Assembly: GCA_044225365.1 (NCBI GenBank)
Contig: JBGAIQ010000037.1
Coordinates: forward strand, 1-55,636
DNA length: 55,636 bases
Origin: Planctomycetota bacterium
GTDB lineage: Bacteria > Planctomycetota > B15-G4 > JADJEK01
Direction: 5' to 3'
Shown here piece after piece: positions 39,050 to 55,433 of this stretch (the stretch's first letter is position 1; each line of letters starts with the position of its first letter). The position numbers and the translations under genes were made by a program. Below the pieces are notes generated by a model that saw only the letters and a list, made by a program, of their open reading frames with translations, had not been told where the DNA came from and ran no database searches.

Positions 39050-39279
39050 GGGGACGGTGCTCCGCGATTTCGAGATTCTTCGAGGGTGCGAAAACCTTGC
39101 ATGTTATCACAGGACGACGAGCGCAGGAAGATCTTTGTGTCGCTCCACGGTGCGAATTCGGCGTCGCCCGCGAGATGTGATCTTTGCTGCGTTTGGTCGG
39201 CTTCGAGCCCTTCGGCCCGAAGGCTCGCGCGGTCGATTCGGTTCCACACCCACCTTTCCCGTCTGCCCTGGGAGGCGCC

Positions 39280-41289
39280 ATGCGTTCGATCCTCGTTTGC
39301 ACTTCCGGATTTTGTATCGCGATGGCGCACGGTCTCGCGCTCGGCTCGCCACCGACCAGCCCTCAGATCGGGAGCACGCCCACGGTCTTCTCCGCGACGG
39401 CCACCGGCGGCTCCTACGGGTCCGCGTTGACGCCCGTCGGCGACGTGAATGGCGACGGTTATGCCGATTTCGTCCTGACCGATTTCCTCGCCGAGCAACC
39501 GGGCGACGTCCAGAGCGACGAGGGCGTGGTCTTTGGTTTCTACGGCAGCGCAACGGGCGTCTCGACGACCCCGAACTGGTCGGTCGACGGCGATGTCGTC
39601 AACGTCCACTTCGGCGTCCAGGCGAGCGGCGCGGGCGACGTCAATGGCGACGGGTTCGACGACGTGCTGGTCTGCGCTCCGAACTACGCGAACGGCCAGA
39701 CCAAGGAAGGCCAGGTCCGCCTCTACTTCGGATCCGCTTCGGGCCTCTCGACCACGGCCGGCTGGCTCTTCGAGAGCGACACCGTCAACTCCGAGATCGG
39801 CACCTTCCTCGCGGCCCTCGGTGACGTGAACGGGGACGGCTTCGCCGACCTCGGGATGTCCGACAAGAACATGGCGCTCGCATGCGCTTTCTACGGCAGC
39901 GCGACGACGCCGCCGACCACCCCGAACTGGACGTTTGCATCGATTGGCCAGGGGCAGGGCGGCATGGCGGGCGTGGGCGACGTGAACGGCGACGGATTCG
40001 ACGACATCATCGTCGGCGGTCTCAAGGGCACGGGCTCGGCCACATTGCAGCAGACTTGGCTCTTCCGCGGCAGCGCGACCGGACTCTCGCTCGCGCCGTT
40101 CCAGACCTTCACCGGCGCAGCGAGCTGCCTCGGACTGCGCGTCGCGGCGGGAGGCGACATCAACGGCGACGGCAATCCGGACGTCGTGACCGGTGACGTA
40201 TGCACCGACTCCTTGAAGATCCTGCGCGGCGCGGGCTCCGGTCTCCTCCAGATGCTTCCTCCCGCGAACCTCTGGAAGCCTTCCGACGCCCTCGATTTCC
40301 CGCGCGCACTCGCGGGCGGGGCCGATGCCGATGGTGACGGTTTCGCGGACGTCCTCGTCGGCGATCCCACGGCGAAGAAAGCGTGGCTGTTCCGCGGCAC
40401 CAGCAAGGGCCTCGCGGCCGACCCGGCGTGGACGGCGAACGCACCTGTCGACACCACGGTGACTCCCGTCTTCGGAACGACGGTCGCGTTCGCGGGCGAC
40501 GTCGACGCCGACGGTGATTCCGAGATTCTCATCAGCGATCCCGACGCCGACTCGGTGAACAAGGTCGGAGTCGATGCCTTCGGTCGGGTTTACGAATACG
40601 CCGGCGCGCCGGTCAACGCCGACGACGCCGTGCCGACGTTCGTTTCCGGCGACACGCTCGTCGGCGCGCTGGCGGCGCAGGGCGACGACACCGAGGCGAA
40701 CTTCGCGGGCGTGAAAGGGATGAAACTCGTCCTCGCATTCGCGGCGGGCGCCGGTCAGAAGCTGACGACCAACCTCATCGATCCCACCGGCAAGCAGGAG
40801 TCGTCGTTCGACGTCACGCTCGGCGCGGCCGGAGCGTCGAAGACCATCAAATTCAAGCGCTCGGGTCTCTACCGCCTCGAGTTCGCGCTGAAGAAGGGCG
40901 CGAATGCGGCGCTCTCGATCGTGACGAGTCGCGAACTGCCGAAGAATGCGCTCGCGCGCACCGTGAACGTGGCGCTCAAGGTCGGCGCCAACAACGTTGC
41001 GCTCGATTTCCTCGCGATCGGCGGCGCGACGTTCGATGCGGACCTGCTCCCCGCCGTCGCACTCACCAATCTCTCGGCCGGGGTGACCACTCCTGCAGGG
41101 TCCGATCTGTCGATCGCTGCGTTCACGACCGGTGACCCGACGCATCTCGTCGTCGCGGCCGTCCCGCTGAACGCGACCGGCAAGTTCCGGCTGCGCATCC
41201 ATGCCGACTCGACGGCGAAGACGTCGCTCGCGGTGACGCTGACACCGAATCAGCCCGCGGTCGGCAGCGCGACCGTGAACCTGCCCTGA
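39280..41289 (+). CDS. Secreted FG-GAP (integrin-alpha-like) 7-bladed propeller protein with two C-terminal beta-sandwich (PPC-like) modules
   Basis: GGAGG RBS; signal peptide; seven D[VIA][ND][GA]DG loops; C-terminal repeats 'LIDPTG...SGLYRL' and 'VTTPAG...TGKFRL'. Confidence 0.87.
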   Translation: MRSILVCTSGFCIAMAHGLALGSPPTSPQIGSTPTVFSATATGGSYGSALTPVGDVNGDGYADFVLTDFLAEQPGDVQSDEGVVFGFYGSATGVSTTPNWSVDGDVVNVHFGVQASGAGDVNGDGFDDVLVCAPNYANGQTKEGQVRLYFGSASGLSTTAGWLFESDTVNSEIGTFLAALGDVNGDGFADLGMSDKNMALACAFYGSATTPPTTPNWTFASIGQGQGGMAGVGDVNGDGFDDIIVGGLKGTGSATLQQTWLFRGSATGLSLAPFQTFTGAASCLGLRVAAGGDINGDGNPDVVTGDVCTDSLKILRGAGSGLLQMLPPANLWKPSDALDFPRALAGGADADGDGFADVLVGDPTAKKAWLFRGTSKGLAADPAWTANAPVDTTVTPVFGTTVAFAGDVDADGDSEILISDPDADSVNKVGVDAFGRVYEYAGAPVNADDAVPTFVSGDTLVGALAAQGDDTEANFAGVKGMKLVLAFAAGAGQKLTTNLIDPTGKQESSFDVTLGAAGASKTIKFKRSGLYRLEFALKKGANAALSIVTSRELPKNALARTVNVALKVGANNVALDFLAIGGATFDADLLPAVALTNLSAGVTTPAGSDLSIAAFTTGDPTHLVVAAVPLNATGKFRLRIHADSTAKTSLAVTLTPNQPAVGSATVNLP

Positions 41290-41337: not shown

Positions 41338-42984
41338 CTACTTCGTTCCGAGCGCCGCTGATTCGCCGCGATTGCGCTTGCTGAGCTCCGCGAGGAAGCC
41401 CTTCGCGACTCCGCCCGCATCGACGGTGTGGATCGTCACGCGGTGGGTGCGATTGCCTTCGTCGACTTCGTGCAGGATCTGTTCGGGCACGAGGACCGCG
41501 CCACGCGACGGTACTCCATCCGAGAGCAGGACGATCGTATCGATATCGAAGACCTTGCCCTGCTTGGTGAGGACGCGGCCCGCATCCTCGCCGAACGCGA
41601 GTTCGAGCGCGCCGAGGAGATCGGTACCGCCGCCTGCCGCTGCATTGCGCACGAATTCGGTCGCCGCCGCTGCGGTCTTCTCATCGAGGACGACGAGGTC
41701 CTTCGAGAAGGGGATGAACGTCTCGTTGAAGAGGATGACGTTGAAGCGAGTGCCCTTGCGCAGACCCTGCAGACAACGATCGAATTCGCGATTCGCGACG
41801 GCGAGTCGACTGGGACCCGCATCGTCGCCGACGACGGGTTGCTGCATCGAGCCCGAGACGTCGAGGAGGAAGACGACCGCGTCGCCATCGATCGAAATGC
41901 CGAAGTAGCGCGCGCCCTGTTCGCGAGCGAGCGGCTTGGTCTGCGGCGGGAGTTCGAACTCGGCGCTCACGCTCGACCACCAGGCGGTCCACTCCTCGGG
42001 CCGCAGACTCGGCAGGTCCTGTCCGGTCAGCGCGCCGAGCGAATCCCGGATCACGGTGCGCACGCGGTGGCGCGAGCCCGCCTTCTCCGGTTGCTCGCGT
42101 TCGAGCGCGGCGATCAGCGCCGGGATCGATGAGCGATCGCGGTACTTGCCGAGTTCCTCGGCCGCCGCGAGGCGAACCGTCCAATGAGAATCCTCGAGCG
42201 CCGTGCGCGCCGCTTTCTGCAGCCGTTCCTTCTGGATCCCGACGAGATCCTGGGATGCGATGCGGTCGAGGGCGAGCAGGGCTTCGAGGCGAACGGTCGG
42301 GTCGGAGTCCTTGAGAGCCGGATCGAGGAGCGGCGCCATCTCGCCGATTCCGAGCTCGCCGAGCGCCCGTGCGGCGCTCGCGCGCACGCTCGCCGCGTCG
42401 TCCGTGAGCAACTTGCCGATCGCGCCCGCGCTGGTGGTGGAGCCGCGCCGCGCCAGGACCCGCGCCGCGATCTCGCGCTTCAGCGCGCCGTCGCGCGGAG
42501 TTCGATCCGTGAGCGCCACGCGGGTGAGGAACACGTCGGTCCCAGGATCCTTGCACTGCACGAGCGCATCCGTCGCGAGGCGGCGCACGAGCCACGGTTG
42601 CTCCGCTCGCCAGCGTCGGCGTTCGAGATAGGGATCGCTCTCGGGACGGAACGTCGCGGCCTGCATCAGCACCAGAGCGGAATCGGTCGCGCCGCTCGTC
42701 GCCGCGGCGTCGAGCAGGGCGCCGGCCTTGTCGACCGCGGAGCGATCGTAGTACCGGATCGGAGCGCCAAGATCGTCGGGGCTGCCCGGCGCGTCGGGTG
42801 AATCGGGCTTCACGGGCGCGCCATTCGCGATCGGGGTGTAGAGATCGATCTCGTGGTGCTTCAGCTTCTCGAGGAATCCGCGCACGGCGGCGACGGCATC
42901 ATCGCCCGCGAGCGGGGATCTCGAGAACGCAGGAAGCGCGAGGGCGCCAACGGACACGGAGAGCAGGAAAGAAATTGCTCGCAT
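41338..42984 (-). CDS. Secreted HEAT-repeat plus vWA (MIDAS) domain protein
   Basis: HEAT repeats 'LLTDDAASVRASAARALG', 'LKDSDPTVRLEA', 'LEDSHWTVRLAAAEELG'; vWA 'VVFLLDVSGSM', 'GGTD', 'IVLLSDG'. Start 42984 or 42996. Confidence 0.87.
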   Translation of the reverse strand: MRAISFLLSVSVGALALPAFSRSPLAGDDAVAAVRGFLEKLKHHEIDLYTPIANGAPVKPDSPDAPGSPDDLGAPIRYYDRSAVDKAGALLDAAATSGATDSALVLMQAATFRPESDPYLERRRWRAEQPWLVRRLATDALVQCKDPGTDVFLTRVALTDRTPRDGALKREIAARVLARRGSTTSAGAIGKLLTDDAASVRASAARALGELGIGEMAPLLDPALKDSDPTVRLEALLALDRIASQDLVGIQKERLQKAARTALEDSHWTVRLAAAEELGKYRDRSSIPALIAALEREQPEKAGSRHRVRTVIRDSLGALTGQDLPSLRPEEWTAWWSSVSAEFELPPQTKPLAREQGARYFGISIDGDAVVFLLDVSGSMQQPVVGDDAGPSRLAVANREFDRCLQGLRKGTRFNVILFNETFIPFSKDLVVLDEKTAAAATEFVRNAAAGGGTDLLGALELAFGEDAGRVLTKQGKVFDIDTIVLLSDGVPSRGAVLVPEQILHEVDEGNRTHRVTIHTVDAGGVAKGFLAELSKRNRGESAALGTK

Positions 42985-43099
42985 GAAGTCTGTCATGGCC
43001 GCGGGACGGTTCGATGCGCCTATCCTATCGACGAATTTTCGACAGATCCTTGTCGAACTCGCAATGAGTGGCCCCGGCTTCTCGCTCAGGAATCCGCCG

Positions 43100-44347
43100 A
43101 TGACGACCGACCGCCTGTACTTCGAGGACAGTCAACTCATCGAGTTCGACGCTCGCGTCATCGCCGTCGAGTCCGACGGCAGCGAGATCCGTGTGCTGCT
43201 CGATCGCACGGCGTTCTACCCCGAAGGCGGTGGACAGCCTTCCGATTTCGGCCGGCTGACGGTCCTCAGCGACGATGCCGCAGAGGTTGTCGACGTTCAG
43301 GAGCAGGGCGGCGCGATCTGGCATCGGCTGAAGGTCGTCGATGCTGCGGCCGCACGCGGGTTCGAGGTCGGCGCCACGGTCGTCGGGAAGGTCGATTGGA
43401 AGCGCCGCTTCGATCACATGCAGCAGCACACCGGTCAGCATCTGATCTCGCGAGTCTTCGTGGAGCAGATGGGGCTCGACACCTCGTCGTTCCACATGGG
43501 CGATCAGGCCTGCACGATCGATCTCGCCATTTCCAATCTCACGGAGTCGCAGATCCGCGCCGCCGAGGAGCGCGCGGCCGAAGTGCTGCGCGACGCGCGG
43601 CCGGTGACCGTGCGCATCGGCGACGCGGCCGCGAATCTCGATCTGCGCAAGGAGGGTATGGCGAAGGGCGAGTTTCGCGCCATCGTGATCGAAGGCGTCG
43701 ACGCCTGCGCCTGCGGCGGCACGCACGTCTCGAACACCGCGCAGATCGAGGCGGTCGCGATCCGCAGGGTCGAGCGAATCAACGATACGCGGTGCCGAGT
43801 CGAGTTCGTGTGTGGTGGTCGTGCACGAGCGGACTACCGGCAGAAGCGCGATCGGCTGCGCGACCTCGGCCGCCTCCTGTCCGCCGAGGAAGGCAAGCTC
43901 GGCGACGCGACGAAGGCTCTCTTGGAGCAGCGCAAGGACGCGGACAAACGCATCAAGGAACTCACGAGGGAAGCGATGCCCGCTCGAGCCGATCGGTGGA
44001 TGGAGACCGCGACGACGGTCGGCGGGAGGCGACTGTTGGTCGCACGGCTCGAATCCGGTCTCCCCGAGGAGGTCGAGGGCCTCGCCGGCGAACTCAGCAA
44101 GCGACCGCTGCTCGTCGCGGCCCTCGTCGCCACGCCGAGCGGTGCGGAGAAGGGGCAGCTCTTCACCATCGCGGCCCCGGATTCGAAGGTCGCTGCGAAC
44201 GAGTGGTTGAAAGCGGTGCTCGACCCGGTTGGCGGCAAGGGCGGCGGGTCGCCCAAGCTCGCCCGCGGCGGTTTCCCGCGCGAGAAGGCGGAGGCGGTCG
44301 CGGAGGCCGCGTCGAAGCTCGGGGCGGACCTCATCGCCAGGTCCTGA
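43100..44347 (+). CDS. AlaX-type alanyl-tRNA editing protein with C-terminal DHHA1 domain
   Basis: 'TDRLYFED', 'LDRTAFYPEGGGQPSD', Zn ligands 'HMQQHTGQH' and 'CGGTH', DHHA1 'GGKGGGSPKLARGG'. Confidence 0.9.
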   Translation: MTTDRLYFEDSQLIEFDARVIAVESDGSEIRVLLDRTAFYPEGGGQPSDFGRLTVLSDDAAEVVDVQEQGGAIWHRLKVVDAAAARGFEVGATVVGKVDWKRRFDHMQQHTGQHLISRVFVEQMGLDTSSFHMGDQACTIDLAISNLTESQIRAAEERAAEVLRDARPVTVRIGDAAANLDLRKEGMAKGEFRAIVIEGVDACACGGTHVSNTAQIEAVAIRRVERINDTRCRVEFVCGGRARADYRQKRDRLRDLGRLLSAEEGKLGDATKALLEQRKDADKRIKELTREAMPARADRWMETATTVGGRRLLVARLESGLPEEVEGLAGELSKRPLLVAALVATPSGAEKGQLFTIAAPDSKVAANEWLKAVLDPVGGKGGGSPKLARGGFPREKAEAVAEAASKLGADLIARS

Positions 44348-44434
44348 ACGCGCCGCGCGATTGCGGGGCGGCTCGGGTTGCAATACACTTTCGACTCGTG
44401 GTAGAGAGGACTTCGTTCGTTCGCGGGGGACGCG

Positions 44435-45100
44435 TTGACGAATTCGCCGGTCGAATCCATCGCCAAAGAGAACCCACTGCTCCGCGATGGTGCAGCGGCG
44501 TGGGACCGACTGATCGAGGCTGCTGGGCCCGCATCGCTGATCGTCGTGATCGGCGAGCGCATGGGCGCCGTGCTCCGGGGGCGCTTCGAACCGGAGGACG
44601 TCTGGCAAGAAGTCCTCCTGCTCGCGTGGCGCGATCGCACAGGCTTCGAATGGCGAGGGCAGGCGAGTTTTCGCTCCTGGTTGCTGACGATCGCCGATCA
44701 TCGAATTCGTGACCTCGTACAGCACGAGAACGCCGAGAAGCGGGGCGGCGGGGCGACCCTGGCGCCATCTCCGTCGGGAACTAGCCCATCCGGATTCGAT
44801 TCGAGTTCGGCGAGTTCGGTGTTCGCAGGACCGATCGCCACGACGACTCCGAGTCGCGCGGCGAGTCTGCGCGAGGAAGCTCGAGTGATGCGAGCAGCGC
44901 TCGAGGAACTGTCCGATGAAGTTCGCGACATCGTTCGGTTGCGCTTGTTCGAGGAGCGCCCGATCGAGGAGATCGCGGCGACTCTCGGCATCGGGGAATC
45001 CGCCGTTCGGCATCGCTTCCGCAAAGGACTCGAAGCGTATGCTCAACGGCTGAAGACGTCGCTGCACGCGCGAGGGAGTGCTGAAAACGGGAAAGCGTGA
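44435..45100 (+). CDS. ECF sigma-70 factor, Planctomycete kinase-associated type
   Basis: Sigma2 'EPEDVWQEV..AWR....F.WRG..SFRSWLLTIA..RIRD'; 'AEKR' and 'TTPSRAA' linker; sigma4 'ALEELS...RDIVRLR.FEE..IEEIA..LG....AV..R'; stop overlaps the kinase start (GTGA). Confidence 0.9.
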   Translation: MTNSPVESIAKENPLLRDGAAAWDRLIEAAGPASLIVVIGERMGAVLRGRFEPEDVWQEVLLLAWRDRTGFEWRGQASFRSWLLTIADHRIRDLVQHENAEKRGGGATLAPSPSGTSPSGFDSSSASSVFAGPIATTTPSRAASLREEARVMRAALEELSDEVRDIVRLRLFEERPIEEIAATLGIGESAVRHRFRKGLEAYAQRLKTSLHARGSAENGKA

Positions 45101-48100
45101 CGCCGTGGAATGCTCGTTTCGCTTCGGAGATTATGAACCTCGATGACGGACTACGGCTTCCGATGCAGGAGCGCGGCAACCTTTGCAACGGGGAGCTTGG
45201 ACCGCGTGATGACGAAGAATTCCTGGACGTCGTGGTGGACGCCGCAATCGAAGCGGCGGGACGCGGCGAACGGCTCGACGTAGAGCTGTACCTGCGCAGC
45301 AGGCCGCATCTCGAGAAGCGCATCGACGAAGCGCTACAACTCTGCCGCGACGTGGCGATTCGAAGAGCGCCTGCGGATCGGATCGGCGGTTATGAGATCC
45401 TTCGCGAGATCGGGCGGGGAGGCATGGGAACGGTCTATCTCGCGCGGCAGGTCGGACTCGGTCGTGAGGTCGCACTGAAGGTACTGCCCGGCACCGCGCG
45501 CTTCTCCGAGCGATCTCGGAAACGATTCCTCGCCGAGGCGCAAGCTCTCGGTCGGCTCGGTCATCCGCACGTCGTCGTGATCCACGACGTGATCGAGACC
45601 GCGGATACTTGCGCGTTCGCGATGGAGTGGGTGGACGGGAAGGATTTGTCGAAGGTCATCGAAGCCCAACGAAGGGGACAAGGCGCGCAATCGCTCGATA
45701 TCGCGCAGATTTCCGACCGCGAGGAGGCGCCGTCGAGTTGCGGCGCGTGGGGGGTGTTCGTCGCGCGGATCTGCATTGAGATCGCACGAGCTCTTTCGGC
45801 GGCGCACCGCGCAGGTTTGTTGCACCGCGACGTGAAGCCCTCCAACGTCTTGTTGCGAAGAGACGGGACGGCGCTGCTCTCCGATTTCGGGCTCGTGCGC
45901 GACGAGGACTCTTCGCGACTCACGGAGGTCGGTCGCTTCGTCGGAACGCTCGCCTACGCGGCCCCGGAGCAGATTCGGGGGGATGCGATCGACGTTCGTT
46001 CGGATGTGTACTCGCTCGGGGTCACGCTGTATCACGCGCTCGGCCTCGCGCTGCCGTTCCGTGGGACGACGCCCGAAGCGATGCTGCACAGCATCGAGCG
46101 GGGCGCGGTGCGGCGATTGCACTCGATGGACGCGACGATACCACGCGATCTGGCGACGATCGTGGCGAAGGCGATGGACGTCGATCCGGCGCGACGGTAC
46201 GCGAGCGCCGACGAGTTGGCGGACGACCTCGAACGGTTCCTGCGCCATGAGCCGATCGTCGCGGTGCCGGACGGGCTTGCGACGCGGATGTGGAAATTCG
46301 TGCGACGCAACCGTCGCACGGTCTTTGCCGCTTCGCTGGCGGCGATCGTCACTACGGCGATCGCAGCCTTTGCGGTAGCGTGGTATCTCGACTGGAAAGA
46401 GCGGCCGGCGCGCGCGGCGGCACTGATCACGAAAGCGCGGCAAAGGCTGGCGGATCCGCAATCACGCGTGCGGGCCGCGTATCCGCAGTCACTTCCAACG
46501 CAGCTCGACGATACGGAACGAGAACGTGGTACACGTGATGCGGTCGCGCTCTACGACGAAGCGATTGGCCTCGTAGTTCAACCCGAGCGAATCCACGCCG
46601 AACGTGCGGCGGTCGCCACGGTCGTGAGCGGAGGTGAATACGCGGGGAGCGACGAACGCGCGGCCGGGATCGCGGCGTTTCTCTCGGGCGACAGTGAAAG
46701 AGCGTTGCGCTGCTGGCGAAAGGCCACGATCGATGGCCCGGTCGATCCCCTGGTCGAGGTCTTTCTCGGGCAGCGACAGCTCGAGAACGGCGAATTCGCA
46801 GCGGCGTATGCGCATCTGTTGCGGGTCGAACGGGAATGGCCCGAAGCGATGTTCGTGCGGCTCGACCTCGCGGACACCGCATTGCGACTCGGAGACGCCG
46901 ACGCTGCGGAGCAGTGGCTCGCACCGCTTTCGTTCCGCGATTGCCGAGGGAGTGTGTCGAAACGCATCCTCCTACGATTGCATTCGGAATGCGCGGAGGC
47001 GAGAGGCAACCTGGAGTTGGCAGAAGCACTGGATCACATCCTCGCCAATCGCTTCGGCGCGACCACACAGTCCACGCTCGGTCACGCGCGCAGGCTTGCG
47101 CGTCTTGGCCGGCCGTGGGAGGCGGTTGACGTCGTCTATCGAATGCGCGACTGGAATCCGCGACCACCCACGTGGGAGCGGGACACTCGCGAAGTCCTCG
47201 ACGCGGCGGCGTGGACGCTGACCCGCGCTGAATTGGCGGGTTGGTTCGGCGTGGGTCGCGACAGAGATGCGGACCCCGATCTCGGAAAATGGCTCGCGGT
47301 GTTCGAAGTCGATTCCGCAAACGGAAAAGAAAGTGCGACGTTCGACCTCGAGGACTCCGCTCCCAACCCTCATGGGGTCTCGCTTCGAGACCTCGATCGT
47401 GTCGAGAGGGTGTCCAAGATGAGTCGAAGTCTTCCCACGGGCGTGCGGCGGTTGGCGCGTTTCATTGCGGCATTTCCCGAATCGGATGCGATCGCAATTG
47501 TGTCAAGAATCGCGACGATGGCGCCCAAGACAGCAGCATTCGCTGTCGTGAGCATGTTCGTGGCGGACGCCCTTGGGCAAACTGAGATCTATCGCTGGGA
47601 CGGCGAGGCTTCGGGCGCAGCATTTGGCTACGACGTAGCAAATGCGGGAGACGTCGACAACGACGGATACACCGACGTCATCATCGGTGCAATGCAAGAG
47701 AACTCGAACACGGGTTCGGCGACGGTGCGGTCAGGTCGTACCGGTGCCATCCTTCACAAATGGCTCGGCGTGGCCGCGAACGATCAATTCGGGCATTCAG
47801 TCGTTGGGTTGGGTGACCTGAATGGCGATGGATACGACGATGTTGCCGTCGGAATGCGTGGCAACGAGAATCCGGCTAATCCGGGCTACGTCCGGGTGTT
47901 CTCGGGGCAGACCGGCGCGGTGCTTTATCATTTCGCGGGATCGGCGCCGGCGATTCTGCTCGGCACTCGGATCGCCAACGTCGGCGATGTGAACGGCGAT
48001 GGGACGGATGATCTCGGAGCGTCCTCGATACAGGCATTCAATGAGGTCAAGATCTTCTCGGGAGCCACAGGAAACGTCATTCATGTCATTCAAGGTCCCA

Positions 48101-50238
48101 GTCCAGGGTTCCTCGGCACCCAGATGGTCAGGCTCGGAGACCTCAATGGGGATGGGAAAGAGGACTTCGGACTGTCGGATCATTTGACCAACGGGCACGC
48201 GGGAGAAATTCAGGTCCGTTCCGGAGCGAATGCTTCGATCATCTACTCGATTCTGGGAAGTACACCGGGAACCTACTTCGGTGTACCCATGGCGAACGTG
48301 GGTGACTTGAACGGAGACGGGAAGACGGATTTCGCAACTGCAGCGTCCAGTGGAGGTGGCCTGGGAGCGGTCTTTGTATATTCCGGCGAGGACGGATCCC
48401 TCCTCGACTCACGTGCTGGCATCAATGCAGGTGCATACTTCGGAAATTCCATCACATCGGTCGCGGACGTCGACCACGATGGGCTGAACGATCTCGCAAT
48501 CGCATCCTTTACCGACAGCACGAACGGTACGAACGCCGGACGGGTATACATCGTGAGTTCTGCGACTCTCGATACGATCTCATCGATCGATGGCGAGAAC
48601 GCCGAAGACTTCTTTGGACACAGAGTTGCCGGGGCTGACCTAACGAATGACGGAAACATCGACCTCATTGTTGGCGCAGCGTTCAAGGATGCGGGTGGCG
48701 TCGACGATGGGTCGACTTACGTATATTCCTTGATCGATGGCTGCTCGACCACGCTCCCGCATTACACCGTCGGCACGACCCCGCGCGACGTTCTGCTCGT
48801 CGATCGCGATGGCGACGGCGACATCGACGCGGTCAGCGCGAACAGCGGCGCGGCTTCACTGTCCGTGCTCACGAACGACGGGCTCGGAGGATTCTCCGGA
48901 ACGCCGCTGACGATCGCGCTCGGCGTGGGCGACGATCCGCAATCGATCGTGCCGCAAGGCAATGGCCTCGCGGTGGCCTGCCCGAGTACGAATCGCATCC
49001 GGCTCCTCGCGCCGAGCGGCGGCTCGTGGACCTACTCGGGTCAGTCCCTCACTCCTCCCGGCCAGCGGCCGGTCGATCTTGCGAGCGGCGCCTTGCATGG
49101 CACGAGCGCGATCGACCTCGTCATCGCCCTCGAGGGCTCGTTCTTCGGCACCGGCGGGGGCGTCGCCGTCACGAATCCCGGCGGGTCACTCACGCTGCTC
49201 CCCGCACCTCCGGGCGGTTTCCTGTCGGTCAAGCGCGTGGCCGTCGGCGATCTCGACGGCGACGGCGACCTGGACATCGTGGCCGGCATGACGGGCACCG
49301 CGTTCGTCGCCGGTCCGACGGCGAACGTGCTCTTGTATGCGAACGACGGTAGTGGAACGTTCAGCTACGCGGGCGCCTTGACCGGCGGCGGCGTGCCGAG
49401 CGGATTCGCGCTGCGCGACCTCGACGGCGACAACGACGTCGACCTGATGGTGGTCGCGCAGGCGGTGCCGCCCTTCGCGACGACGTCCGGATTGACGGTA
49501 TTCAAAAACAACGGGACGGGCGCACTCGGCCCCTCGCGATTCACGGCGTTGTCGCAACTCGCGGCGGGCTCGTTGCCGGGCGACGTGGTGTCGCTCGACC
49601 TGAATTCGGATTCGCTAGCGGGATTCCTCTCGCTCGAGGACGTCGTCGTGGCGGACACGACGGGCAGCACGCTGAAGGGCTTCCGCTCTTTCGGAACGAC
49701 GAGCTTCGCGTCGACGGAGGACCTCGAGGCCGACGACACGCCGGTCGCGCTCGCGGCCGGCGATCTCAATGCCGACGGGATCCCGGATCTCGTCGAGGTC
49801 AACGCGGGCTGTGATTCGCTGACGGTGTCGCTCTCGACTCTCAATGCGCTCGCGCAGAAGTTCGGGACGGGCTGCGCGGGAACGGCGGGCAAGGTACCCG
49901 CGATCTCGGCCGTCGGCTCGCCGACCTTTGGCAATCCGAGCTTCGGTGTGAAGCTCACGAACGGCCGCGCGGCGTCGTTCGTGTTCTTCGGGATCTCGCT
50001 GAACTACCTGAACGCGCCTCTCGGCGGCGGCTGTTCGCTGTTCCTGACGCCACCGGTGTCGTTCTTCACGACGTTCACCAACGCAACGGGTCAGGCGCAG
50101 ATCAACTTCGGGATCCCGACCGCGGTGCCGCCCTTCGTCGGGCTGAACGCCTACTTCCAGTACTTCGTGAACGACCCGGTCGGCGGGTACTCGGGCTTCG
50201 CGTTCTCGGACGCGCTGCGCATCCGGCTCGGAAACTGA
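45097..50238 (+). CDS. Ser/Thr protein kinase - TM - TPR - two FG-GAP propellers - C-terminal domain fusion (1713 aa)
   Basis: Intact Hanks motifs GRGGMG, VALK, HRDVKPSN, DFG, APE, DVYSLG; TM at ~46318-46389; TPR-like helices; about 14 FG-GAP/DxDGDG-type loops (two degenerate) after 47578; single uninterrupted ORF. Confidence 0.88.
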   Translation: MTPWNARFASEIMNLDDGLRLPMQERGNLCNGELGPRDDEEFLDVVVDAAIEAAGRGERLDVELYLRSRPHLEKRIDEALQLCRDVAIRRAPADRIGGYEILREIGRGGMGTVYLARQVGLGREVALKVLPGTARFSERSRKRFLAEAQALGRLGHPHVVVIHDVIETADTCAFAMEWVDGKDLSKVIEAQRRGQGAQSLDIAQISDREEAPSSCGAWGVFVARICIEIARALSAAHRAGLLHRDVKPSNVLLRRDGTALLSDFGLVRDEDSSRLTEVGRFVGTLAYAAPEQIRGDAIDVRSDVYSLGVTLYHALGLALPFRGTTPEAMLHSIERGAVRRLHSMDATIPRDLATIVAKAMDVDPARRYASADELADDLERFLRHEPIVAVPDGLATRMWKFVRRNRRTVFAASLAAIVTTAIAAFAVAWYLDWKERPARAAALITKARQRLADPQSRVRAAYPQSLPTQLDDTERERGTRDAVALYDEAIGLVVQPERIHAERAAVATVVSGGEYAGSDERAAGIAAFLSGDSERALRCWRKATIDGPVDPLVEVFLGQRQLENGEFAAAYAHLLRVEREWPEAMFVRLDLADTALRLGDADAAEQWLAPLSFRDCRGSVSKRILLRLHSECAEARGNLELAEALDHILANRFGATTQSTLGHARRLARLGRPWEAVDVVYRMRDWNPRPPTWERDTREVLDAAAWTLTRAELAGWFGVGRDRDADPDLGKWLAVFEVDSANGKESATFDLEDSAPNPHGVSLRDLDRVERVSKMSRSLPTGVRRLARFIAAFPESDAIAIVSRIATMAPKTAAFAVVSMFVADALGQTEIYRWDGEASGAAFGYDVANAGDVDNDGYTDVIIGAMQENSNTGSATVRSGRTGAILHKWLGVAANDQFGHSVVGLGDLNGDGYDDVAVGMRGNENPANPGYVRVFSGQTGAVLYHFAGSAPAILLGTRIANVGDVNGDGTDDLGASSIQAFNEVKIFSGATGNVIHVIQGPSPGFLGTQMVRLGDLNGDGKEDFGLSDHLTNGHAGEIQVRSGANASIIYSILGSTPGTYFGVPMANVGDLNGDGKTDFATAASSGGGLGAVFVYSGEDGSLLDSRAGINAGAYFGNSITSVADVDHDGLNDLAIASFTDSTNGTNAGRVYIVSSATLDTISSIDGENAEDFFGHRVAGADLTNDGNIDLIVGAAFKDAGGVDDGSTYVYSLIDGCSTTLPHYTVGTTPRDVLLVDRDGDGDIDAVSANSGAASLSVLTNDGLGGFSGTPLTIALGVGDDPQSIVPQGNGLAVACPSTNRIRLLAPSGGSWTYSGQSLTPPGQRPVDLASGALHGTSAIDLVIALEGSFFGTGGGVAVTNPGGSLTLLPAPPGGFLSVKRVAVGDLDGDGDLDIVAGMTGTAFVAGPTANVLLYANDGSGTFSYAGALTGGGVPSGFALRDLDGDNDVDLMVVAQAVPPFATTSGLTVFKNNGTGALGPSRFTALSQLAAGSLPGDVVSLDLNSDSLAGFLSLEDVVVADTTGSTLKGFRSFGTTSFASTEDLEADDTPVALAAGDLNADGIPDLVEVNAGCDSLTVSLSTLNALAQKFGTGCAGTAGKVPAISAVGSPTFGNPSFGVKLTNGRAASFVFFGISLNYLNAPLGGGCSLFLTPPVSFFTTFTNATGQAQINFGIPTAVPPFVGLNAYFQYFVNDPVGGYSGFAFSDALRIRLGN
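48742..50238 (+). repeat. ~1.5-kb direct repeat, copy 1 (second propeller plus C-terminal domain)
   Basis: From 'CSTTLPHY' to 'LRIRLGN*'; collinear with 51622-53115, with long identical stretches and mostly synonymous differences. Confidence 0.92.
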
Positions 50239-50322
50239 GCTTCGAGGTACGGCGGCGCTGGCGAACGGTCAGCGTCGCTGGGGTCATCGCCCCCGCAGTC
50301 TTACAACTCGAGGAGAATCGTC

Positions 50323-53115
50323 GTGATTCGACACGTCCGTTCGCGGCTGGCATCCATCGTGTGGATCGGCATTCCCTTGATCGTGGAGACGGTGCAAGCG
50401 ACTTCGACCGCGAGCGGTCAGACCTTGATCTACGAGTCTCACGGCGCAGCCGCCAGTGATCAACACGGTCAAACCGTTTCGAACTACGGCGATCTCGACG
50501 GTGATGGACTCGAGGAATTCGCAGTTGGCGCACCGCTCGTGAACGTAGGTTCGTCTGCGGACCGCGGAAGAGTCGTCGTCTATCGCGGCTCCGATGGTTC
50601 AGTGCTCTTCACCTGGTTTGGCTTGGTCACGAACGAGCGATTCGGATCTTCGATCGATTCGGCAGGCGACTTGAACATGGATGGTGTACCGGATCTCTTG
50701 ATCGGCGCGCCGCATATCGCGGGCGGAGGCCCGACATCGATCGGTCACGTGCGCGCATTTTCAGGTGCGACGGGATCACTATTGTTCGACATCTCGAAGC
50801 CGACGTACGTCGGACACGCCTTCGGCGCGTGCGTTGCAAATGTAGGAGATGTCGACAACGACTCTGTTCCGGACGTCGCAATCGGGCGATTCAACGGGGG
50901 CACGGGACTGCCGCAAACGACCGAGGTGTACTCGGGAGCGAACCAGACCCTGCTGCGCTCCGTGGTAGCGACTACTCCGGGGAACGCCTATCCGCGATCT
51001 TGTGCAGGCTTGGGAGATCTCGACACGGATGGATTCGACGACTTCTTAGTTGGAGAAGTCCCAGTGCCAGCGGCACTAGGAAGAGTGAGAGTGATTTCGG
51101 GTCACACGGGATCCACGCTGCAACTGCTCTTGGGTGCGAGCATCGGAGATGGATTCGGTCAGGTCGTCGCGAACGCAGGAGATTTGACCGGAGACGGCAA
51201 GAGCGATGCGTTCGCCGGCTCGCCTGTCGCAGCGCCTAGCGGGACTCCTACCGGTCGCGTTCAACTCTTTTCGGCGGCCGATGGGACGCTTGTGAGGGCG
51301 TGGAACGGGAGCCAGCCGAATGAGGCATTTGGGAATTCGATTTCGAGCGTAGGCGATCTCGATCTCGACGGAGTTCCGGATGCCATCTTTGGGGCTCCGC
51401 AACAGGTGACACAAGCCGGACGAGTGGAAGTGGTGCACGGATCCGACGGATCCGTGTGGTTCGAGATCGCCGGATTGACTGGAGACAAGTTCGGCGATGC
51501 TGTTGCCGCGGCCGACGTGACCGGCGATGGATTGCGCGACCTCATCGTGGGCTCGCCGGCGAACGATGTTCCAACGACCAACGCAGGCGCGGCGTACGTC
51601 TACGATGCCCCGTCCCGGAATTGCTCGACTTCTCTCCCTCATTATGATGTCGGCTCGACTCCTCGCGACGTGCTGCTCGTCGATCGTGACGGCGACGGCG
51701 ATCGCGACGCGGTGACGGCGAACAGCGGCGCGGGAACGTTGACGGTCCTCACCAACGACGGCCTGGGCGGATTCGGCGCTGCGGCACTGACGATCGCGCT
51801 CGGCGCGGGCGACGATCCACAGTCGGTGGTGACGCAAGGAACCGGCCTCGCGGTGGCCTGCCCGAGCACGAACGCCATTCGCCTACTGGCACCAAGCGCC
51901 GGCTCGTGGACGTACTCGAGAACGACGCTGACGCCTCCGGGCCAGCGGCCGGTGGATCTCGCGAGCGGCAATCTCGACGGCGCGGGCGGCGTCGACCTCG
52001 CAATCGCGCTCGAGGGCAGCGTGTTCGGCGTGGGCGGCGGCGTCGCGGTGTCGCTCGGCGGCGCGCCGGTGATGCTGCCTTCGCCTCCCGGCGGGTTCCT
52101 GTCCATCAAGCGCGTCGCCATCGGCGATCTCGACGGCGACGGCGATCAGGACATCGTTGCGGGCATGTCGGGCACCGCGTTCGCGCCCGTTCCGACTGCG
52201 AATATCCTGCTCTACGAGAACACGGGCAGTGGATCGTTCACCTACGTCGGCGCGTTGCCTGGCGGCGGCGTTCCGAGCGGCCTCGCGCTGCACAACATCG
52301 ACAACGACAACGACGTCGACCTGATCGTGATCGCGCAGCCCGTGCCGCCGTTCGGCACGACCTCGGGCCTGACGGTATTCACGAACAACGGGACGGGCGC
52401 GTTCGGACCCTCGCGCTTCATGGCTTTGTCGCAGCTCGCAGCGGGCTCTTTGCCGGGTGACGTGGTGGCGCTCGATCTCAATTCGGATTCGTTGCCCGGG
52501 TTCATCTCCCTGGAGGACGTCGTCGTCGCCGACACGACCGGCAGCACGCTGAAATCCTTCCGCTCGTTCGGAACGACGAGCTTCGCGTCGACGGAGGACC
52601 TCGAGGCCGACGACACGCCGGTGGCGCTCGCGGCCGGTGATCTCAACGCCGACGGGATCCCGGACCTGGTCGAGGTCAACGCGGGCTGCGATTCGCTGAC
52701 CGTGTCGCTCTCGACTCTCAATGCGCTCGCGCAGAAGTTCGGGACGGGCTGCGCGGGAACGGCGGGTAAGGTACCCGCGATCTCGGCGGAGGGATTGCCG
52801 ACGTTCGGGAATCCGAGCTTCGGCGTGAAACTCACGAACGGTCGCGCAGCGTCGTTCGTGTTCTTCGGAATCTCGCTGAACTACCTGAACGCTCCGCTCG
52901 GGGGCGGCTGCACTCTGTTCCTGACGCCGCCGGTTGCTTTCTACAGCACGTTCACCGACGCAACGGGACAGACGCAGATCGGCCTGCCGATCCCGAACGC
53001 GGTGCCGCCCTTCGTCGGGCTCAACGCGTACTTCCAGTACTTCGTGAACGACCCGGTCGGCGGGTACTCGGGATTCGCGTTCTCCGACGCCCTGCGCATC
53101 CGACTCGGGAATTGA
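50323..53115 (+). CDS. Secreted FG-GAP protein with two propellers and C-terminal domain (930 aa); paralogue of the kinase ectodomain
   Basis: GAGGAG RBS, GTG start, signal-like N-terminus ending 'TASG|QTLIY'; seven DxD/NxDG-type loops, then the duplicated half. Confidence 0.9.
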   Translation: MIRHVRSRLASIVWIGIPLIVETVQATSTASGQTLIYESHGAAASDQHGQTVSNYGDLDGDGLEEFAVGAPLVNVGSSADRGRVVVYRGSDGSVLFTWFGLVTNERFGSSIDSAGDLNMDGVPDLLIGAPHIAGGGPTSIGHVRAFSGATGSLLFDISKPTYVGHAFGACVANVGDVDNDSVPDVAIGRFNGGTGLPQTTEVYSGANQTLLRSVVATTPGNAYPRSCAGLGDLDTDGFDDFLVGEVPVPAALGRVRVISGHTGSTLQLLLGASIGDGFGQVVANAGDLTGDGKSDAFAGSPVAAPSGTPTGRVQLFSAADGTLVRAWNGSQPNEAFGNSISSVGDLDLDGVPDAIFGAPQQVTQAGRVEVVHGSDGSVWFEIAGLTGDKFGDAVAAADVTGDGLRDLIVGSPANDVPTTNAGAAYVYDAPSRNCSTSLPHYDVGSTPRDVLLVDRDGDGDRDAVTANSGAGTLTVLTNDGLGGFGAAALTIALGAGDDPQSVVTQGTGLAVACPSTNAIRLLAPSAGSWTYSRTTLTPPGQRPVDLASGNLDGAGGVDLAIALEGSVFGVGGGVAVSLGGAPVMLPSPPGGFLSIKRVAIGDLDGDGDQDIVAGMSGTAFAPVPTANILLYENTGSGSFTYVGALPGGGVPSGLALHNIDNDNDVDLIVIAQPVPPFGTTSGLTVFTNNGTGAFGPSRFMALSQLAAGSLPGDVVALDLNSDSLPGFISLEDVVVADTTGSTLKSFRSFGTTSFASTEDLEADDTPVALAAGDLNADGIPDLVEVNAGCDSLTVSLSTLNALAQKFGTGCAGTAGKVPAISAEGLPTFGNPSFGVKLTNGRAASFVFFGISLNYLNAPLGGGCTLFLTPPVAFYSTFTDATGQTQIGLPIPNAVPPFVGLNAYFQYFVNDPVGGYSGFAFSDALRIRLGN
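51622..53115 (+). repeat. ~1.5-kb direct repeat, copy 2
   Basis: From 'CSTSLPHY' to 'LRIRLGN*'; matches 48742-50238. Confidence 0.92.
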
Positions 53116-53126
53116 CGCTCCCCGCT

Positions 53127-53353
53127 CGAACGCGTTCTTCGGCAAGCGTCCTTCGGCGACGGTGACCTGCGTCACGCGGACCGTCGAGACGGAGCCGAGG
53201 AACGCGTTCGTTCGTGCAGGAGGAGCCGGAACGCGGGGGGACTCGACTGCGAGCACGTGCCACAGGCGCAGCCGCGCTGGAGCGCGGCGGTCCGTCATGT
53301 AGGAGCGGATGGAGATCGCGCGCCGGCACGGTCGCGCCAAGACGATCGTCTTC
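53127..53353 (+). ncRNA. Candidate structured RNA(s) between the FG-GAP gene and the ferredoxin gene
   Basis: Hairpin 53127-53210 (CGAACGCGTTCTTCGGC/GCCGAGGAACGCGTTCG, inner CGACGGT/ACCGTCG). Branched fold ~53237-53353 (CGTGCC/GGCACG, GGCGC/GCGCC, GCCGCGC/GCGCGGC, TCCGTC/GATGGA). Confidence 0.35.
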
Positions 53354-53360
53354 AGATCGC

Positions 53361-53395
53361 AAGAGCCCCGTCTTCGAAGAACCGGGGCTCTTTTT
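53361..53395 (+). terminator. Intrinsic terminator
   Basis: GAGCCCCG-TCTTCGAAGAAC-CGGGGCTC followed by TTTTT. Confidence 0.8.
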
Positions 53396-53479
53396 CTACT
53401 CCGGACGTGGAGGGAGATGTCCCGCGGGGTACAAAAGGGGGTCTTCCCGACCGTTTCACCATCGAACGAGACGACTCCC

Positions 53480-53683
53480 ATGCCGATAAAGCGAGTGTGG
53501 ATCGAGGACGGCTGCATCGCGTGCAACCTCAGCCAGGACACGTGTCCGCAGGTCTTCGAGATCCCCGCCGGATCGAATACGGCCGTCGTCAAGCCGGACG
53601 CGGATCTCGTGCGGAACGAGAAGGCGATCAAGGAGGCGGCAGCGGCGTGTCCGGTGAATGTGATCCAGTTCGAAGAGGCCTGA
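53480..53683 (+). CDS. Monocluster ferredoxin (67 aa)
   Basis: 'CIACNLSQDTCPQVF' and 'EAAAACPVNVI', the single-cluster ferredoxin pattern. Confidence 0.9.
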   Translation: MPIKRVWIEDGCIACNLSQDTCPQVFEIPAGSNTAVVKPDADLVRNEKAIKEAAAACPVNVIQFEEA

Positions 53684-53708
53684 TGCGGGTTCGTCGCCTG
53701 CGCAGGAA

Positions 53709-55433
53709 TTGCGACCTCGCGTGAGCTCCTCGCACTCTCTCGGCATTCGTCTCACGATCATCGGCGCCATCATGCTCGTGCTGATGGCGGCGGGAGCATT
53801 GCTCGTCGGCAATCTGCCGCGCTCGACGTCCAACGATCCGAACCTCGTGCTGATCGTCCTCGATACCGTTCGCTACGACCACACGTCGCTCGGATCCTCC
53901 CGCGCGACGACTCCGTTCCTGAAGGATCTTGCGGGCAGCGGAGTCGAATTCACGAGCGCGCGCTCGGCGGCCGAATGGACGATGCCGTCGCACGCCTCGA
54001 TCTTCACGGGCCTGTTGCCGCACCAGCATCTCTGCACCTTCGAGCATCGCTATCTGCCGGACGAAGTCGTGACGATCGCGGAGCGATTGCGCCAGAAGCC
54101 GTATCGCACCGCCGCGTTTTCCTCGAACGTGAACGTCAGCAGGGTGTTCAACTTCGATCAGGGTTTCGACCACTTCTTCGAGGCGTTCAACGAGAGCGCC
54201 ACCTTGGCGTATGGTTCGCGGAGCGCGGCATTACTCGCCGACCTGGAGCGCTGGCTCGGACAGTCGCGGAACGAGCCGGTCTTCCTCTTCGTGAACCTAA
54301 TGGAAGCGCATCTGCCGTACGAGGCGACCGCGGCGAATCTCGCGACGTTCGCCCCGCGGGGGCAATCGCTCGACCCGAAGGAGCTCGGTGCGCGCGACTT
54401 CTTCGACCGCGTCCTCGCGGGAGAGCGGCGGCTCGACGATGAGTTCAAGTCCGCGCTCGCGGAGCGCTACGACGCCGCGCTGCACACCGTGGACGATCGA
54501 CTGCGCGATGTGATCGAGATGCTCGGGAAGAGCCACATCGATTCCAGCAACACGATCTTCGTCATCACTTCGGATCATGGCGAACACCTCGGTGAGGGCG
54601 GGCTCGTCGATCATCACGGATCGTTGTCGGAGGAACTCCTGCGGGTCCCGCTCGTCATCTACGGGCGCGGTGTCGCCGCGGGCAAGAAGGTCGCGTCGCC
54701 CGTAAGCACGGCCAACATCGCGCGCTGGCTCGACGTGTTGCCATCCGGTGGTTTCAAGCCCGATCGATATTCCGCGCAGGGCGCCATCGTGAGCGAGCGT
54801 ACGGCAGAGCCTGAGATCGTCGCACGGCTCGCGGCGAACCGCCCGGGGGTCGATCATGGATTCCTCGAATTCGGGGAATCCGCGATCGTCGACTCGAGCG
54901 GGCGATGGAAGCTCGTCCACCGCGACGACGGGGCCGCGATGCTCTATGAACTCGGTCCCGGTGGCGCGACTCTCATCGATCCGACCGCGGAGCCGGAAGT
55001 GCGAACGCGCCTCTCCCAGAGCCTGGCGACGATCGTGAGGACGCCGAGCGTCGTCGAGCGATTCGATGTGCACGCGGAGTTCGCCCCCGACAACGACGCG
55101 CTGACGTCGATCGCGCAGAGCGGGTATGGCTCGCCCGCAAGCGTCGGGTCGACCGCGTCGATCCACGCGCAGATCCATCTCGAGCGTGGAAATCGTTCCT
55201 TGACGAAGGGCGACCTGGCGGAGGCGAAGAAGGACTACGAAGCGGCGCTCGCGATCGAGCCGCGATTCGCGGCTGCCTACTTCAATCTCGCTGTCATCGC
55301 CGAGAAGTCGAATGCGCCCACGGCTGATCAGAAGCGGGCCTGGGAGCGCTACGTCGATATCGCGCTGCGCACGACGCCCGACGATCAAACCTCGATCCAA
55401 CAGGCGTATCAGCGGCTCGAAGCGCTGCGGTGA
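53709..55433 (+). CDS. Membrane-anchored sulfatase-like (alkaline phosphatase superfamily) protein with C-terminal TPR
   Basis: TM anchor; 'PNLVLIVLDTVR', 'WTMPSHASIFTG', 'NLMEAHLPY', 'TSDHGE', 'RVPLVI'; TPR 'YEAALAIEPRFAAAYFNLA'. Start may be GTG 53721. Confidence 0.87.
   Translation: MRPRVSSSHSLGIRLTIIGAIMLVLMAAGALLVGNLPRSTSNDPNLVLIVLDTVRYDHTSLGSSRATTPFLKDLAGSGVEFTSARSAAEWTMPSHASIFTGLLPHQHLCTFEHRYLPDEVVTIAERLRQKPYRTAAFSSNVNVSRVFNFDQGFDHFFEAFNESATLAYGSRSAALLADLERWLGQSRNEPVFLFVNLMEAHLPYEATAANLATFAPRGQSLDPKELGARDFFDRVLAGERRLDDEFKSALAERYDAALHTVDDRLRDVIEMLGKSHIDSSNTIFVITSDHGEHLGEGGLVDHHGSLSEELLRVPLVIYGRGVAAGKKVASPVSTANIARWLDVLPSGGFKPDRYSAQGAIVSERTAEPEIVARLAANRPGVDHGFLEFGESAIVDSSGRWKLVHRDDGAAMLYELGPGGATLIDPTAEPEVRTRLSQSLATIVRTPSVVERFDVHAEFAPDNDALTSIAQSGYGSPASVGSTASIHAQIHLERGNRSLTKGDLAEAKKDYEAALAIEPRFAAAYFNLAVIAEKSNAPTADQKRAWERYVDIALRTTPDDQTSIQQAYQRLEALR

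Follow-up and report, generated by a model that had tools for sequence, protein, structure and literature searches.

How an uncultured planctomycete might couple an extracytoplasmic function (ECF) sigma factor to signals from outside the cell through a receptor kinase is the question raised by a locus on contig JBGAIQ010000037.1 of the Planctomycetota bacterium assembly GCA_044225365.1. The whole stretch of DNA analysed, positions 1 to 55,636 of the forward strand (55,636 nucleotides), is referred to here as the window. Three genes at this locus encode an ECF-type sigma factor, a 1713-residue receptor Ser/Thr kinase that continues into two integrin-alpha-like propellers, and a free, predicted secreted paralogue of the propeller part (Table 1). 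The reading that we favour, with a probability of roughly 55%, is that these genes form a planctomycetal sigma/receptor-kinase pair in which a membrane-bound Hanks-type kinase replaces the anti-sigma factor, that the receptor originated by gene fusion, and that the paralogue is a mosaic protein acting as co-sensor or competitor. The core of this system is a type of pair already known from genomes, and the double propeller with its unnamed end domain, the joint that precedes it and the mosaic copy are the particular form that the pair takes here.

Locus organization and conservation

A sequence-only reading of the window had placed three co-oriented genes at this locus, and an open reading frame scan returned them on the forward strand with exactly the same boundaries; what that reading had observed was confirmed, and its interpretation was partly supported. 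Its statement that the sigma factor stop codon overlaps the kinase start holds for one of two possible starts: with the GTG start the overlap is the GTGA at 45097-45100, whereas the database gene call begins the kinase at M23 (nt 45163) and leaves a 62-nt gap after the sigma factor stop. Because ATGA overlaps occur in the related loci L002, L007 and L014, a 4-nt overlap is plausible here as well. The kinase and paralogue genes are separated by 84 nt containing no terminator-like site, and a GAGGAG sits 7 nt ahead of the paralogue GTG. Across positions 42900-53800 terminator-like sites were fewer than in shuffled sequence and a scan, which included no search aimed at ECF promoters, gave no promoter-like sites. 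Domain scans of the larger open reading frames of the window and of the neighbouring genes found no anti-sigma domain.

A homologue search of a 5.8-billion-protein set, from which 120 relatives of the kinase were listed, gave four full-length metagenomic orthologues of 1678-1709 aa (56-67% identity, 98% query coverage) with the same Pfam content. In an alignment that included the window protein, all five were continuous through the joint between kinase and propellers, so misassembly is strongly disfavoured and the fusion is, on this comparison, genuine. Homologues in which kinase and FG-GAP genes are always separate had been named by the sequence-only reading as the outcome that would count against it, and the two are fused in all five proteins. 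The combination of Pkinase and FG-GAP is also recurrent in Planctomycetota, since 19 of the 120 listed relatives, the window protein counted, carry both.

The sigma factor has its four best homologues (64-70% identical) on contigs of 18196, 18710, 20638 and 8169 bp, which match in size the contigs of the four kinase orthologues; because of this agreement the sigma-kinase linkage was read as kept in 4/4 orthologues. A wider set of 78 kinase loci, 69 of them with at least 600 nt upstream, was fetched from GTDB genomes by kinase motifs. In 16 of the 78, a sigma-70/ECF open reading frame on the same strand immediately precedes the kinase gene, so that a conserved neighbourhood with a Ser/Thr kinase (STK), the trait of the STK-linked ECF groups, is found both among the orthologues and in the wider set. 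Since these loci consist mostly of generic planctomycetal kinases, they are no guide to what follows the short kinases described below. Only L002 has the TPR region in common with the window protein; it encodes an ECF sigma factor and a kinase-TPR-FG-GAP protein (1434-aa open reading frame, or 1292 aa from an ATG overlapping the sigma factor stop) that is 36% identical to the window kinase over residues 39-1174, with a glycosyltransferase gene next to it.

The receptor kinase

The kinase domain has every element expected of the Hanks type, namely the Gly-loop (G106, G108), the VAIK Lys (K128), the alphaC Glu (E147), HRD (H243-R244-D245), DFG (D263-F264-G265), APE (P290-E291) and the subdomain XI Arg (R367), and these residues together with N250 are invariant in the 16 kinases aligned. 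The intact kinase and the transmembrane (TM) segment announced by the sequence-only reading were therefore both recovered. The segment, TM1, is the only strong hydrophobic segment of the kinase, with Kyte-Doolittle values of 1.98-2.27 over the five orthologues, and it is spanned by a helix at residues 406-451 in the AlphaFold2 model. Ahead of the kinase domain, residues 38-95 are helical in the model and had no family match in the domain scan; D39, E40, L43, D44 and R69-P70-H71-L72 of this extension are invariant in the five orthologues, and the sigma factor might dock there.

The TPR-like helices of the earlier description were borne out as helical repeats in the model, but not by the TPR family models, which stayed below their cut-offs: TPR_19 reached 21.2 bits against 25 in the Pfam scan of the kinase, and the best of three TPR models reached 24.5 bits, below its own cut-off, when the helical region was scanned alone. 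Residues 472-718 are called only TPR-like here, after the helical-repeat fold seen in the model. Residues 721-840 were less confident in the AlphaFold2 model, which covered residues 1-1200.

The remainder of the kinase matches FG-GAP_3 (1.1e-34) and FG-GAP (6.7e-33) in Pfam, as does the paralogue (1.2e-37 and 5.7e-37). Loops of the D-x-D-x-D-G type, which by motif are of the calcium kind, number nine in the kinase and seven in the paralogue. An AlphaFold2 model of the paralogue, with a predicted local distance difference test score (pLDDT) of 85.7, contains 28 + 28 strands followed by a beta-sandwich at residues 803-930, and because of this strand count two 7-bladed propellers are supported by the model. 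The best Foldseek matches in the PDB were integrin alpha chains (E 4e-20), with a TM-score of 0.68 to propeller-only chains and whole-chain scores of 0.32-0.36 to full integrin alpha. The proposal of two 7-bladed propellers of the integrin alpha fold with a terminal domain behind them thus agrees with the model. The terminal domain itself had no Pfam match up to E 10, a PDB sequence search gave one chance-level match only, and its nearest Atlas clusters are unnamed Planctomycetota proteins.

The free paralogue

The gene downstream of the kinase had been described as encoding the same ectodomain as a stand-alone secreted protein. Its architecture and its 62% identity to the kinase ectodomain over 911 aa agree with this, but the protein is not a plain copy, and the part of partner, decoy or output that the same reading gave it is putative. 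In the N-propeller, amino acid identity to the kinase is 29-46% and differences at four-fold sites are 0.53-0.88 (one window 0.29), which is saturated; over the rest of the protein, beginning with the inter-propeller linker, identity is 63-97% and four-fold differences are 0.20-0.42. DNA identity within this shared tract rises toward the 3' end, and similarity stops at the stop codon.

Trees of the two halves gave different placements. The N-propeller of the paralogue falls outside the clade of the five fused kinases (Shimodaira-Hasegawa-like approximate likelihood ratio test, SH-aLRT, 99), whereas its propeller 2 falls inside the fused-kinase clade (100), and the N-propeller data reject the C-half placement (P value of the approximately unbiased test, p-AU, 0.008, for groups named after the trees were seen). 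A second free-type protein, P0126, is a 602-aa fragment from a 4466-bp contig. Its last two N-propeller blades (72 columns) are 53% identical to the window paralogue as against 30-41% to the kinases, whereas its propeller 2 and end domain are 93% and 100% identical to the kinase P0006, compared with 83% and 87% to the window paralogue. P0126 is sister to P0006 in the C-half tree (100/98), and grouping the two free proteins together is rejected by the C-half data (p-AU 0.0005). By these alignments and trees the paralogue is a mosaic, with an N-propeller foreign to the kinase clade and a C half that follows the kinase of its own lineage. Since the C half of the free protein tracks the local kinase in two lineages, the data suggest gene conversion or repeated partial copying of that half.

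It is possible, though in our estimate less likely than not, that the paralogue is functionally unconnected to the receptor and is an ordinary secreted FG-GAP protein that has undergone neutral gene conversion with its neighbour. Planctomycetota commonly encode free double-propeller proteins that carry this end domain, for example P0127 (35% identity over 99%) and P0128 ('integrin alpha'), and the range of four-fold differences in the shared tract implies that conversion is not constant. The four orthologue contigs also yielded no copy of the paralogue, a negative that is weakened because near-identical tracts break assemblies. Set against these points are the converted C half of a second lineage and the short gap, free of terminator-like sites, between the two genes of the window. 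A prediction of a complex between kinase residues 1221-1713 and paralogue residues 438-930 scored 0.28 against a mark of 0.32, in a single job without controls, and so weighs neither way on binding.

The joint between kinase and propellers

A second hydrophobic segment of the kinase, H2, is weaker than TM1 and lies just ahead of propeller 1. Its residues vary, but its character and a small-x-small site before Q-T-E are kept in all five orthologues, each of which fits the Sec signal-peptide pattern; H2 is internal and was scored by this pattern, not by a trained predictor. In the paralogue the signal peptide ends with A-S-G before Q-T-L-I-Y, and the presumed mature start (Q-T-x-I-Y) is the same as that of the kinase after H2.

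Kinase residues 435-830 were scanned with HMMER against 1.84 billion representatives. The sole 50%-identity cluster matching the whole region at E < 1e-30 was that of P0007, so the exact family is rare. There were 139 weaker matches, and 93 of the 138 proteins retrieved are kinases by their HRD motif. Nineteen short kinases (806-872 aa) stop short of the H2 position by 15-30 residues, right after a junction motif that they have in common with the window protein, and a hydrophobic segment occurs 340-480 residues past TM1 in 40 of the 62 kinases of at least 1000 aa. A cleavage-like pattern, [AVSGTC]-x-[AGS]-Q, which is a crude one of our own and not a trained predictor, follows H2 in 19/40 cases, TM1 in 3/62 and other hydrophobic segments in 4/102, and occurs in 74/1240 (6%) of random windows. 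Of 11 members scanned, four carry FG-GAP repeats downstream of H2 and one carries a C-type lectin domain; the other six gave no Pfam match there. Where planctomycetal FG-GAP kinases lack the TPR module, they have one TM segment and no second hydrophobic segment ahead of the FG-GAP repeats. Family members with a segment about 400 residues past the TM segment and varied end domains after it include P0370, P0371, P0394, P0404, P0414, P0448, P0453, P0498 and P0010.

Read-through from a kinase-TM-TPR gene into a downstream gene for a secreted protein most likely fused the two and gave rise to the long kinases, and such an origin would explain the signal-peptide-like joint. It is supported by the short kinases, which stop before H2 where the long ones carry H2 and varied domains, and by the free relatives, whose N-terminal signal peptide occupies the corresponding position and is followed by the same mature start. 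Two other readings of the joint were set aside. The 'RR' before H2 is not conserved in the orthologues, and a Tat-type signal was rejected; internal translation from M775, ahead of which there is a GAGG-like stretch, may still occur but was dropped as this Met lies within a motif that is present in the short kinases too.

H2 might instead be functional and be cut between A-x-G and Q828, giving a kinase-TM-TPR protein and a soluble double propeller as its separate binding partner. Such products would be in line both with the two separate genes presumed to be ancestral and with the free paralogue, and the idea draws on the signal-peptide look-alike with Gln at +1 in 5/5 orthologues, the enrichment of the cleavage-like motif after H2, the mature start predicted to be that of the paralogue, the ends of the short kinases just before H2, and the lack of a second segment in FG-GAP kinases without the TPR module. 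Standard insertion after TM1, on the other hand, presents H2 in the wrong orientation for signal peptidase, the H2 of L002 has no cleavage-like site, and the motif test is as crude as its pattern; on balance we regard the cut as doubtful. A broader version seems to us rather improbable, in which a conserved internal signal peptide would export and release the sensor module across a polyprotein family, the module would signal back by binding the kinase-TM-TPR body, and the free paralogue would use the same port, with a C half held in step by gene conversion and an N-propeller that recognises another ligand. TM1 and H2 both have pLDDT values below 50 in the AlphaFold2 model of residues 1-1200, and the topology is not settled by the model. 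In preference to a cut, we propose that H2 may be too short to stop transfer, which would leave everything after TM1 in the periplasm.

The sigma factor

The sigma factor matches Sigma70_r2 (4e-7) and Sigma70_r4_2 (3e-10) in Pfam, and with sigma2 (approximately residues 47-97) and sigma4 (approximately residues 152-200) as its only regions in 221 aa it is an ECF (group 4) sigma-70 factor; the linker between them is rich in Ser, Thr and Pro. The NCBIfam model TIGR02937 (sigma70-ECF) scored 61.6 bits, above its cut-off of 42.9, and the best specific model, TIGR02984 (Planctomycetaceae-specific subfamily 1), stayed below its cut-off of 183.75 at 80 bits. Residues 52-59 (E52-x-x-D55-x-x-Q58-E59) form the sigma2.2 motif ExxDxxQE. 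D55 and Q58 are invariant in 16/16 aligned sigma factors, and so are P139 and S140 at the end of the sigma2-sigma4 linker.

Among kinase-linked ECF groups only ECF43 has been tested experimentally, according to the parts of PMC13147305 and PMC8999054 cited here. The ECF43 factors EcfP and EcfK are described there as lacking the acidic DxxD/DAED motif of sigma2.2 and as being activated by phosphorylation of a Thr at that place, and for EcfK a further phosphosite in the sigma2-sigma4 linker, T106, is required as well (PMC13147305, same part). The window sigma factor does not show the ECF43 replacement of the acidic motif by a conserved Thr (QTTA/STTA); because it keeps ExxDxxQE, it is by motif not an ECF43 member. 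The other ECF43 feature, a co-encoded Hanks-type kinase without an anti-sigma factor, is present at the locus. By analogy with T106 of EcfK, the TTTPS at the end of the linker is a candidate target of the kinase.

The kinase could also be co-transcribed with the sigma factor and have other substrates, the sigma factor being competent alone and controlled by transcription or by some other factor. An acidic motif of the kind that contacts RNA polymerase is kept, groups other than ECF43 keep that motif and may work differently according to the cited part of a review (PMC8999054), and a sigma factor gene precedes only 16 of the 78 related kinase loci. Nevertheless, the linkage in all four orthologues, the 4-nt overlaps at related loci, which suggest coupled translation, the absence of a nearby anti-sigma gene from the scans, and the invariant S/T-P-S of the linker make it improbable that the kinase leaves the sigma factor alone. 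That the 1713-aa open reading frame is an assembly or sequencing artefact joining a kinase gene to an FG-GAP gene has a very low probability, for although a signal-peptide-like segment marks the joint and a similar 1.5-kb tract nearby could mislead an assembler, the four orthologues on other contigs run through the joint with the same layout and the two similar tracts differ at approximately 10% of bases and lie far from it.

Proposed signalling scheme

In the favoured reading, the kinase domain would be cytoplasmic and the receptor would pass the membrane once, with the TPR-like domain, the signal-peptide-like joint, the two integrin-alpha-like propellers of calcium type and the beta-sandwich all outside the cytoplasm. 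A ligand, perhaps a surface glycan or protein, would bind the propellers and change the activity of the kinase, which would phosphorylate the sigma factor; the S/T-rich linker, not sigma2.2, would be the most plausible site. In turn, the sigma factor would activate a regulon that probably includes this operon. The free protein has its own N-propeller and would probably differ in specificity, and with a C half matched to the receptor by gene conversion it would probably meet the same partner, as co-sensor or competitor.

Several observations weigh against this scheme. The retained ExxDxxQE makes the sigma2.2 switch of ECF43, the one understood mechanism, inapplicable, the cited part of PMC8999054 records no experiment on any planctomycetal sigma-kinase pair, and no PP2C phosphatase was found among the larger open reading frames of the window. 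The signal-peptide character of H2 and the A-x-G before Q persist among orthologues that are 56-67% identical, as would not be expected of a dead relic. Flanking charges predict that H2 inserts N-in, which clashes with a periplasmic TPR domain, as a spanning TM1 allows such an orientation only with the TPR part in the cytoplasm. Gene conversion between neighbours can be neutral and is no proof of a shared partner, and to this is added the lack of the paralogue on the orthologue contigs.

Comparison with known systems

The sequence-only reading had stated as established that planctomycete ECF factors are often paired with Ser/Thr kinases instead of anti-sigma factors, and this agrees with the cited part of PMC7826278, which lists the kinase-linked groups ECF43, ECF59-62, ECF217, ECF267 and ECF283 as mostly without anti-sigma factors. 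In the ECF43 pairs EcfP-PknT of Vibrio parahaemolyticus and EcfK-PknS of Xanthomonas citri, as here, the ECF gene lies beside that of a single-pass membrane Ser/Thr kinase and there is no anti-sigma factor, and the extracytoplasmic domain of the kinase is variable within ECF43 (parts cited of PMC13147305 and PMC8999054). The window pair differs in keeping ExxDxxQE at the place of the uncharged residues and conserved Thr of ECF43, in its phylum, in its far larger ectodomain and in being known from genes alone. With ECF59, ECF61, ECF62 and ECF217 it has in common the Planctomycetota origin of its relatives and, by the cited parts of PMC7826278 and PMC8999054, a kinase in the place of the anti-sigma factor and an acidic sigma2.2 motif; the likeness is one of kinase linkage and motif, and the nearest proxy for membership is the TIGR02984 score given above. 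The double propeller, the signal-peptide-like joint and the mosaic paralogue were not found described for these groups in the literature searched.

Membrane STKs of Planctomycetota with periplasmic TPR or WD40 arrays have, like the window protein, a cytoplasmic Pkinase domain, one TM segment and a repeat domain, and their TPR arrays are predicted to be periplasmic (PMC11032199, cited in part). The window kinase adds a second hydrophobic segment and two propellers after its TPR-like part; FG-GAP is not mentioned in the main text or in one supplement file of PMC11032199. That the full architecture had not been recognised as a characterised system is consistent with the literature searched, in which no description of FG-GAP kinases, or of an internal signal peptide in them, was found; with 19 relatives of the same combination, however, the architecture is not a one-off.

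Each propeller resembles that of integrin alpha in having seven four-stranded blades and D-x-[DN]-x-D-G loops. Integrins proper are alpha/beta heterodimers with thigh and calf domains and a C-terminal TM segment, and no such domain follows the propellers here, where two tandem propellers and an unnamed end domain are found and no beta subunit is encoded in the window. Bacterial homologues of the integrin alpha propeller, planctomycetal ones included, are on record (PMC3192720, cited in part). Unlike these, one copy here is fused to a kinase; the word 'kinase' is absent from PMC3192720.

Features and neighbouring genes

Table 1. Features of the sigma factor, receptor kinase and paralogue genes (window positions).
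Feature	Position (nt)	Strand	Details
ECF-type sigma factor gene	44435..45100	+	221 aa, TTG start; Pfam
Sigma linker end codons T136-S140, TTTPS	44840..44854	+	candidate phosphosite by analogy only
Receptor Ser/Thr kinase gene	45097..50238	+	1713 aa from GTG; alternative start M23, nt 45163
N-terminal helical extension, residues 38-95	45208..45381	+	ahead of kinase domain
Hanks-type kinase domain, residues 99-370	45391..46206	+	Pkinase 5.6e-43
Transmembrane segment TM1, residues 408-431	46318..46389	+	Kyte-Doolittle 2.27; preceded by RRNRR stretch
TPR-like helical-repeat domain, residues 472-718	46510..47250	+	confident helices in AlphaFold2 model
Conserved junction motif, residues ~752-790	47350..47466	+	common to short kinases, which end soon after
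Signal-peptide-like segment H2, residues 808-827	47518..47577	+	Lys n-region, ~13 hydrophobic residues, A-x-G before Q828
Kinase propeller 1, residues 828-1212	47578..48732	+	FG-GAP type, six D-x-[DN]-x-D-G loops
Kinase propeller 2, residues 1221-1583	48757..49845	+	81.6% identical to paralogue propeller 2
Kinase terminal beta-sandwich domain, 130 aa	49846..50235	+	90.8% identical to paralogue copy
Free secreted paralogue gene	50323..53115	+	930 aa, GTG start
Paralogue parts		+	signal peptide 1-26/32, propeller 1 33-430, propeller 2 438-800, terminal domain 801-930
Shared tract (propeller 2 and end domain)	51620..53115	+	against kinase nt ~48740-50238; ~90% DNA identity

The remaining genes of the window are housekeeping genes (Mfd, RNase III, Rho, EF-G) and genes for DUF1501 and DUF1800 proteins, the latter as an adjacent pair at 25271-27822 on the complementary strand. 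The pairing of DUF1501 with DUF1800 is common in Planctomycetota. Directly upstream of the sigma factor gene, on the same strand (42983-44347, +), is a gene for a 454-aa protein with tRNA_SAD and DHHA1 domains. Of the alanyl-tRNA synthetase catalytic region this protein contains just the C-terminal end, and it resembles a free-standing protein of the editing type. A HEAT-repeat and von Willebrand A protein is encoded near the locus on one side (41338-42996, -), and a sulfatase with C-terminal TPR repeats on the other (53709-55433, +).

A third FG-GAP gene is located at 39184-41289 (+). Its 701-aa open reading frame has a likely start at M33 followed by a signal-peptide-like stretch, and the protein has one propeller with eight loops of the D-x-[DN]-x-D-G type and a C-terminal region without a Pfam match. 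It is distant from propeller 1 of the paralogue (26-30% identity) and is without the shared C half. The G+C content is 0.58-0.62 at 47000-48500 and 50500-51500, which cover both N-propellers, as against 0.64-0.69 in the flanks and the shared C halves.

Other receptor layouts were seen among the related kinases. The kinases at L025 9974-15604 and L012 9515-15646, together with P0027 and P0050, have one TM segment and propellers of FG-GAP/PQQ type and end in a C-terminal block of four to five strongly hydrophobic segments, a different layout from that of the window protein. At L061 9695-14590 a 1631-aa kinase is fused to membrane-fusion domains of HlyD type, and a Sigma70_r2 open reading frame lies just upstream.

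Implications

Envelope signalling in Planctomycetota is believed to have sigma-kinase pairs as one of its main routes, and only the proteobacterial ECF43 pairs have been tested. As a test case the locus described here is conveniently small: its kinase is intact, the linker of its sigma factor holds an invariant Ser/Thr site, and the fold of its sensor is known. Its joint poses the question of how long receptor kinases are inserted and whether they are cut, and at the same time preserves a legible trace of the probable gene fusion. If the internal signal-peptide-like site were cleaved, that would be the most testable surprise, and a polyprotein receptor family, if true, would be a bacterial receptor design that we have not found described. 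The receptor and its paralogue, with a shared C half and divergent N-propellers, offer a natural experiment on which half carries specificity.

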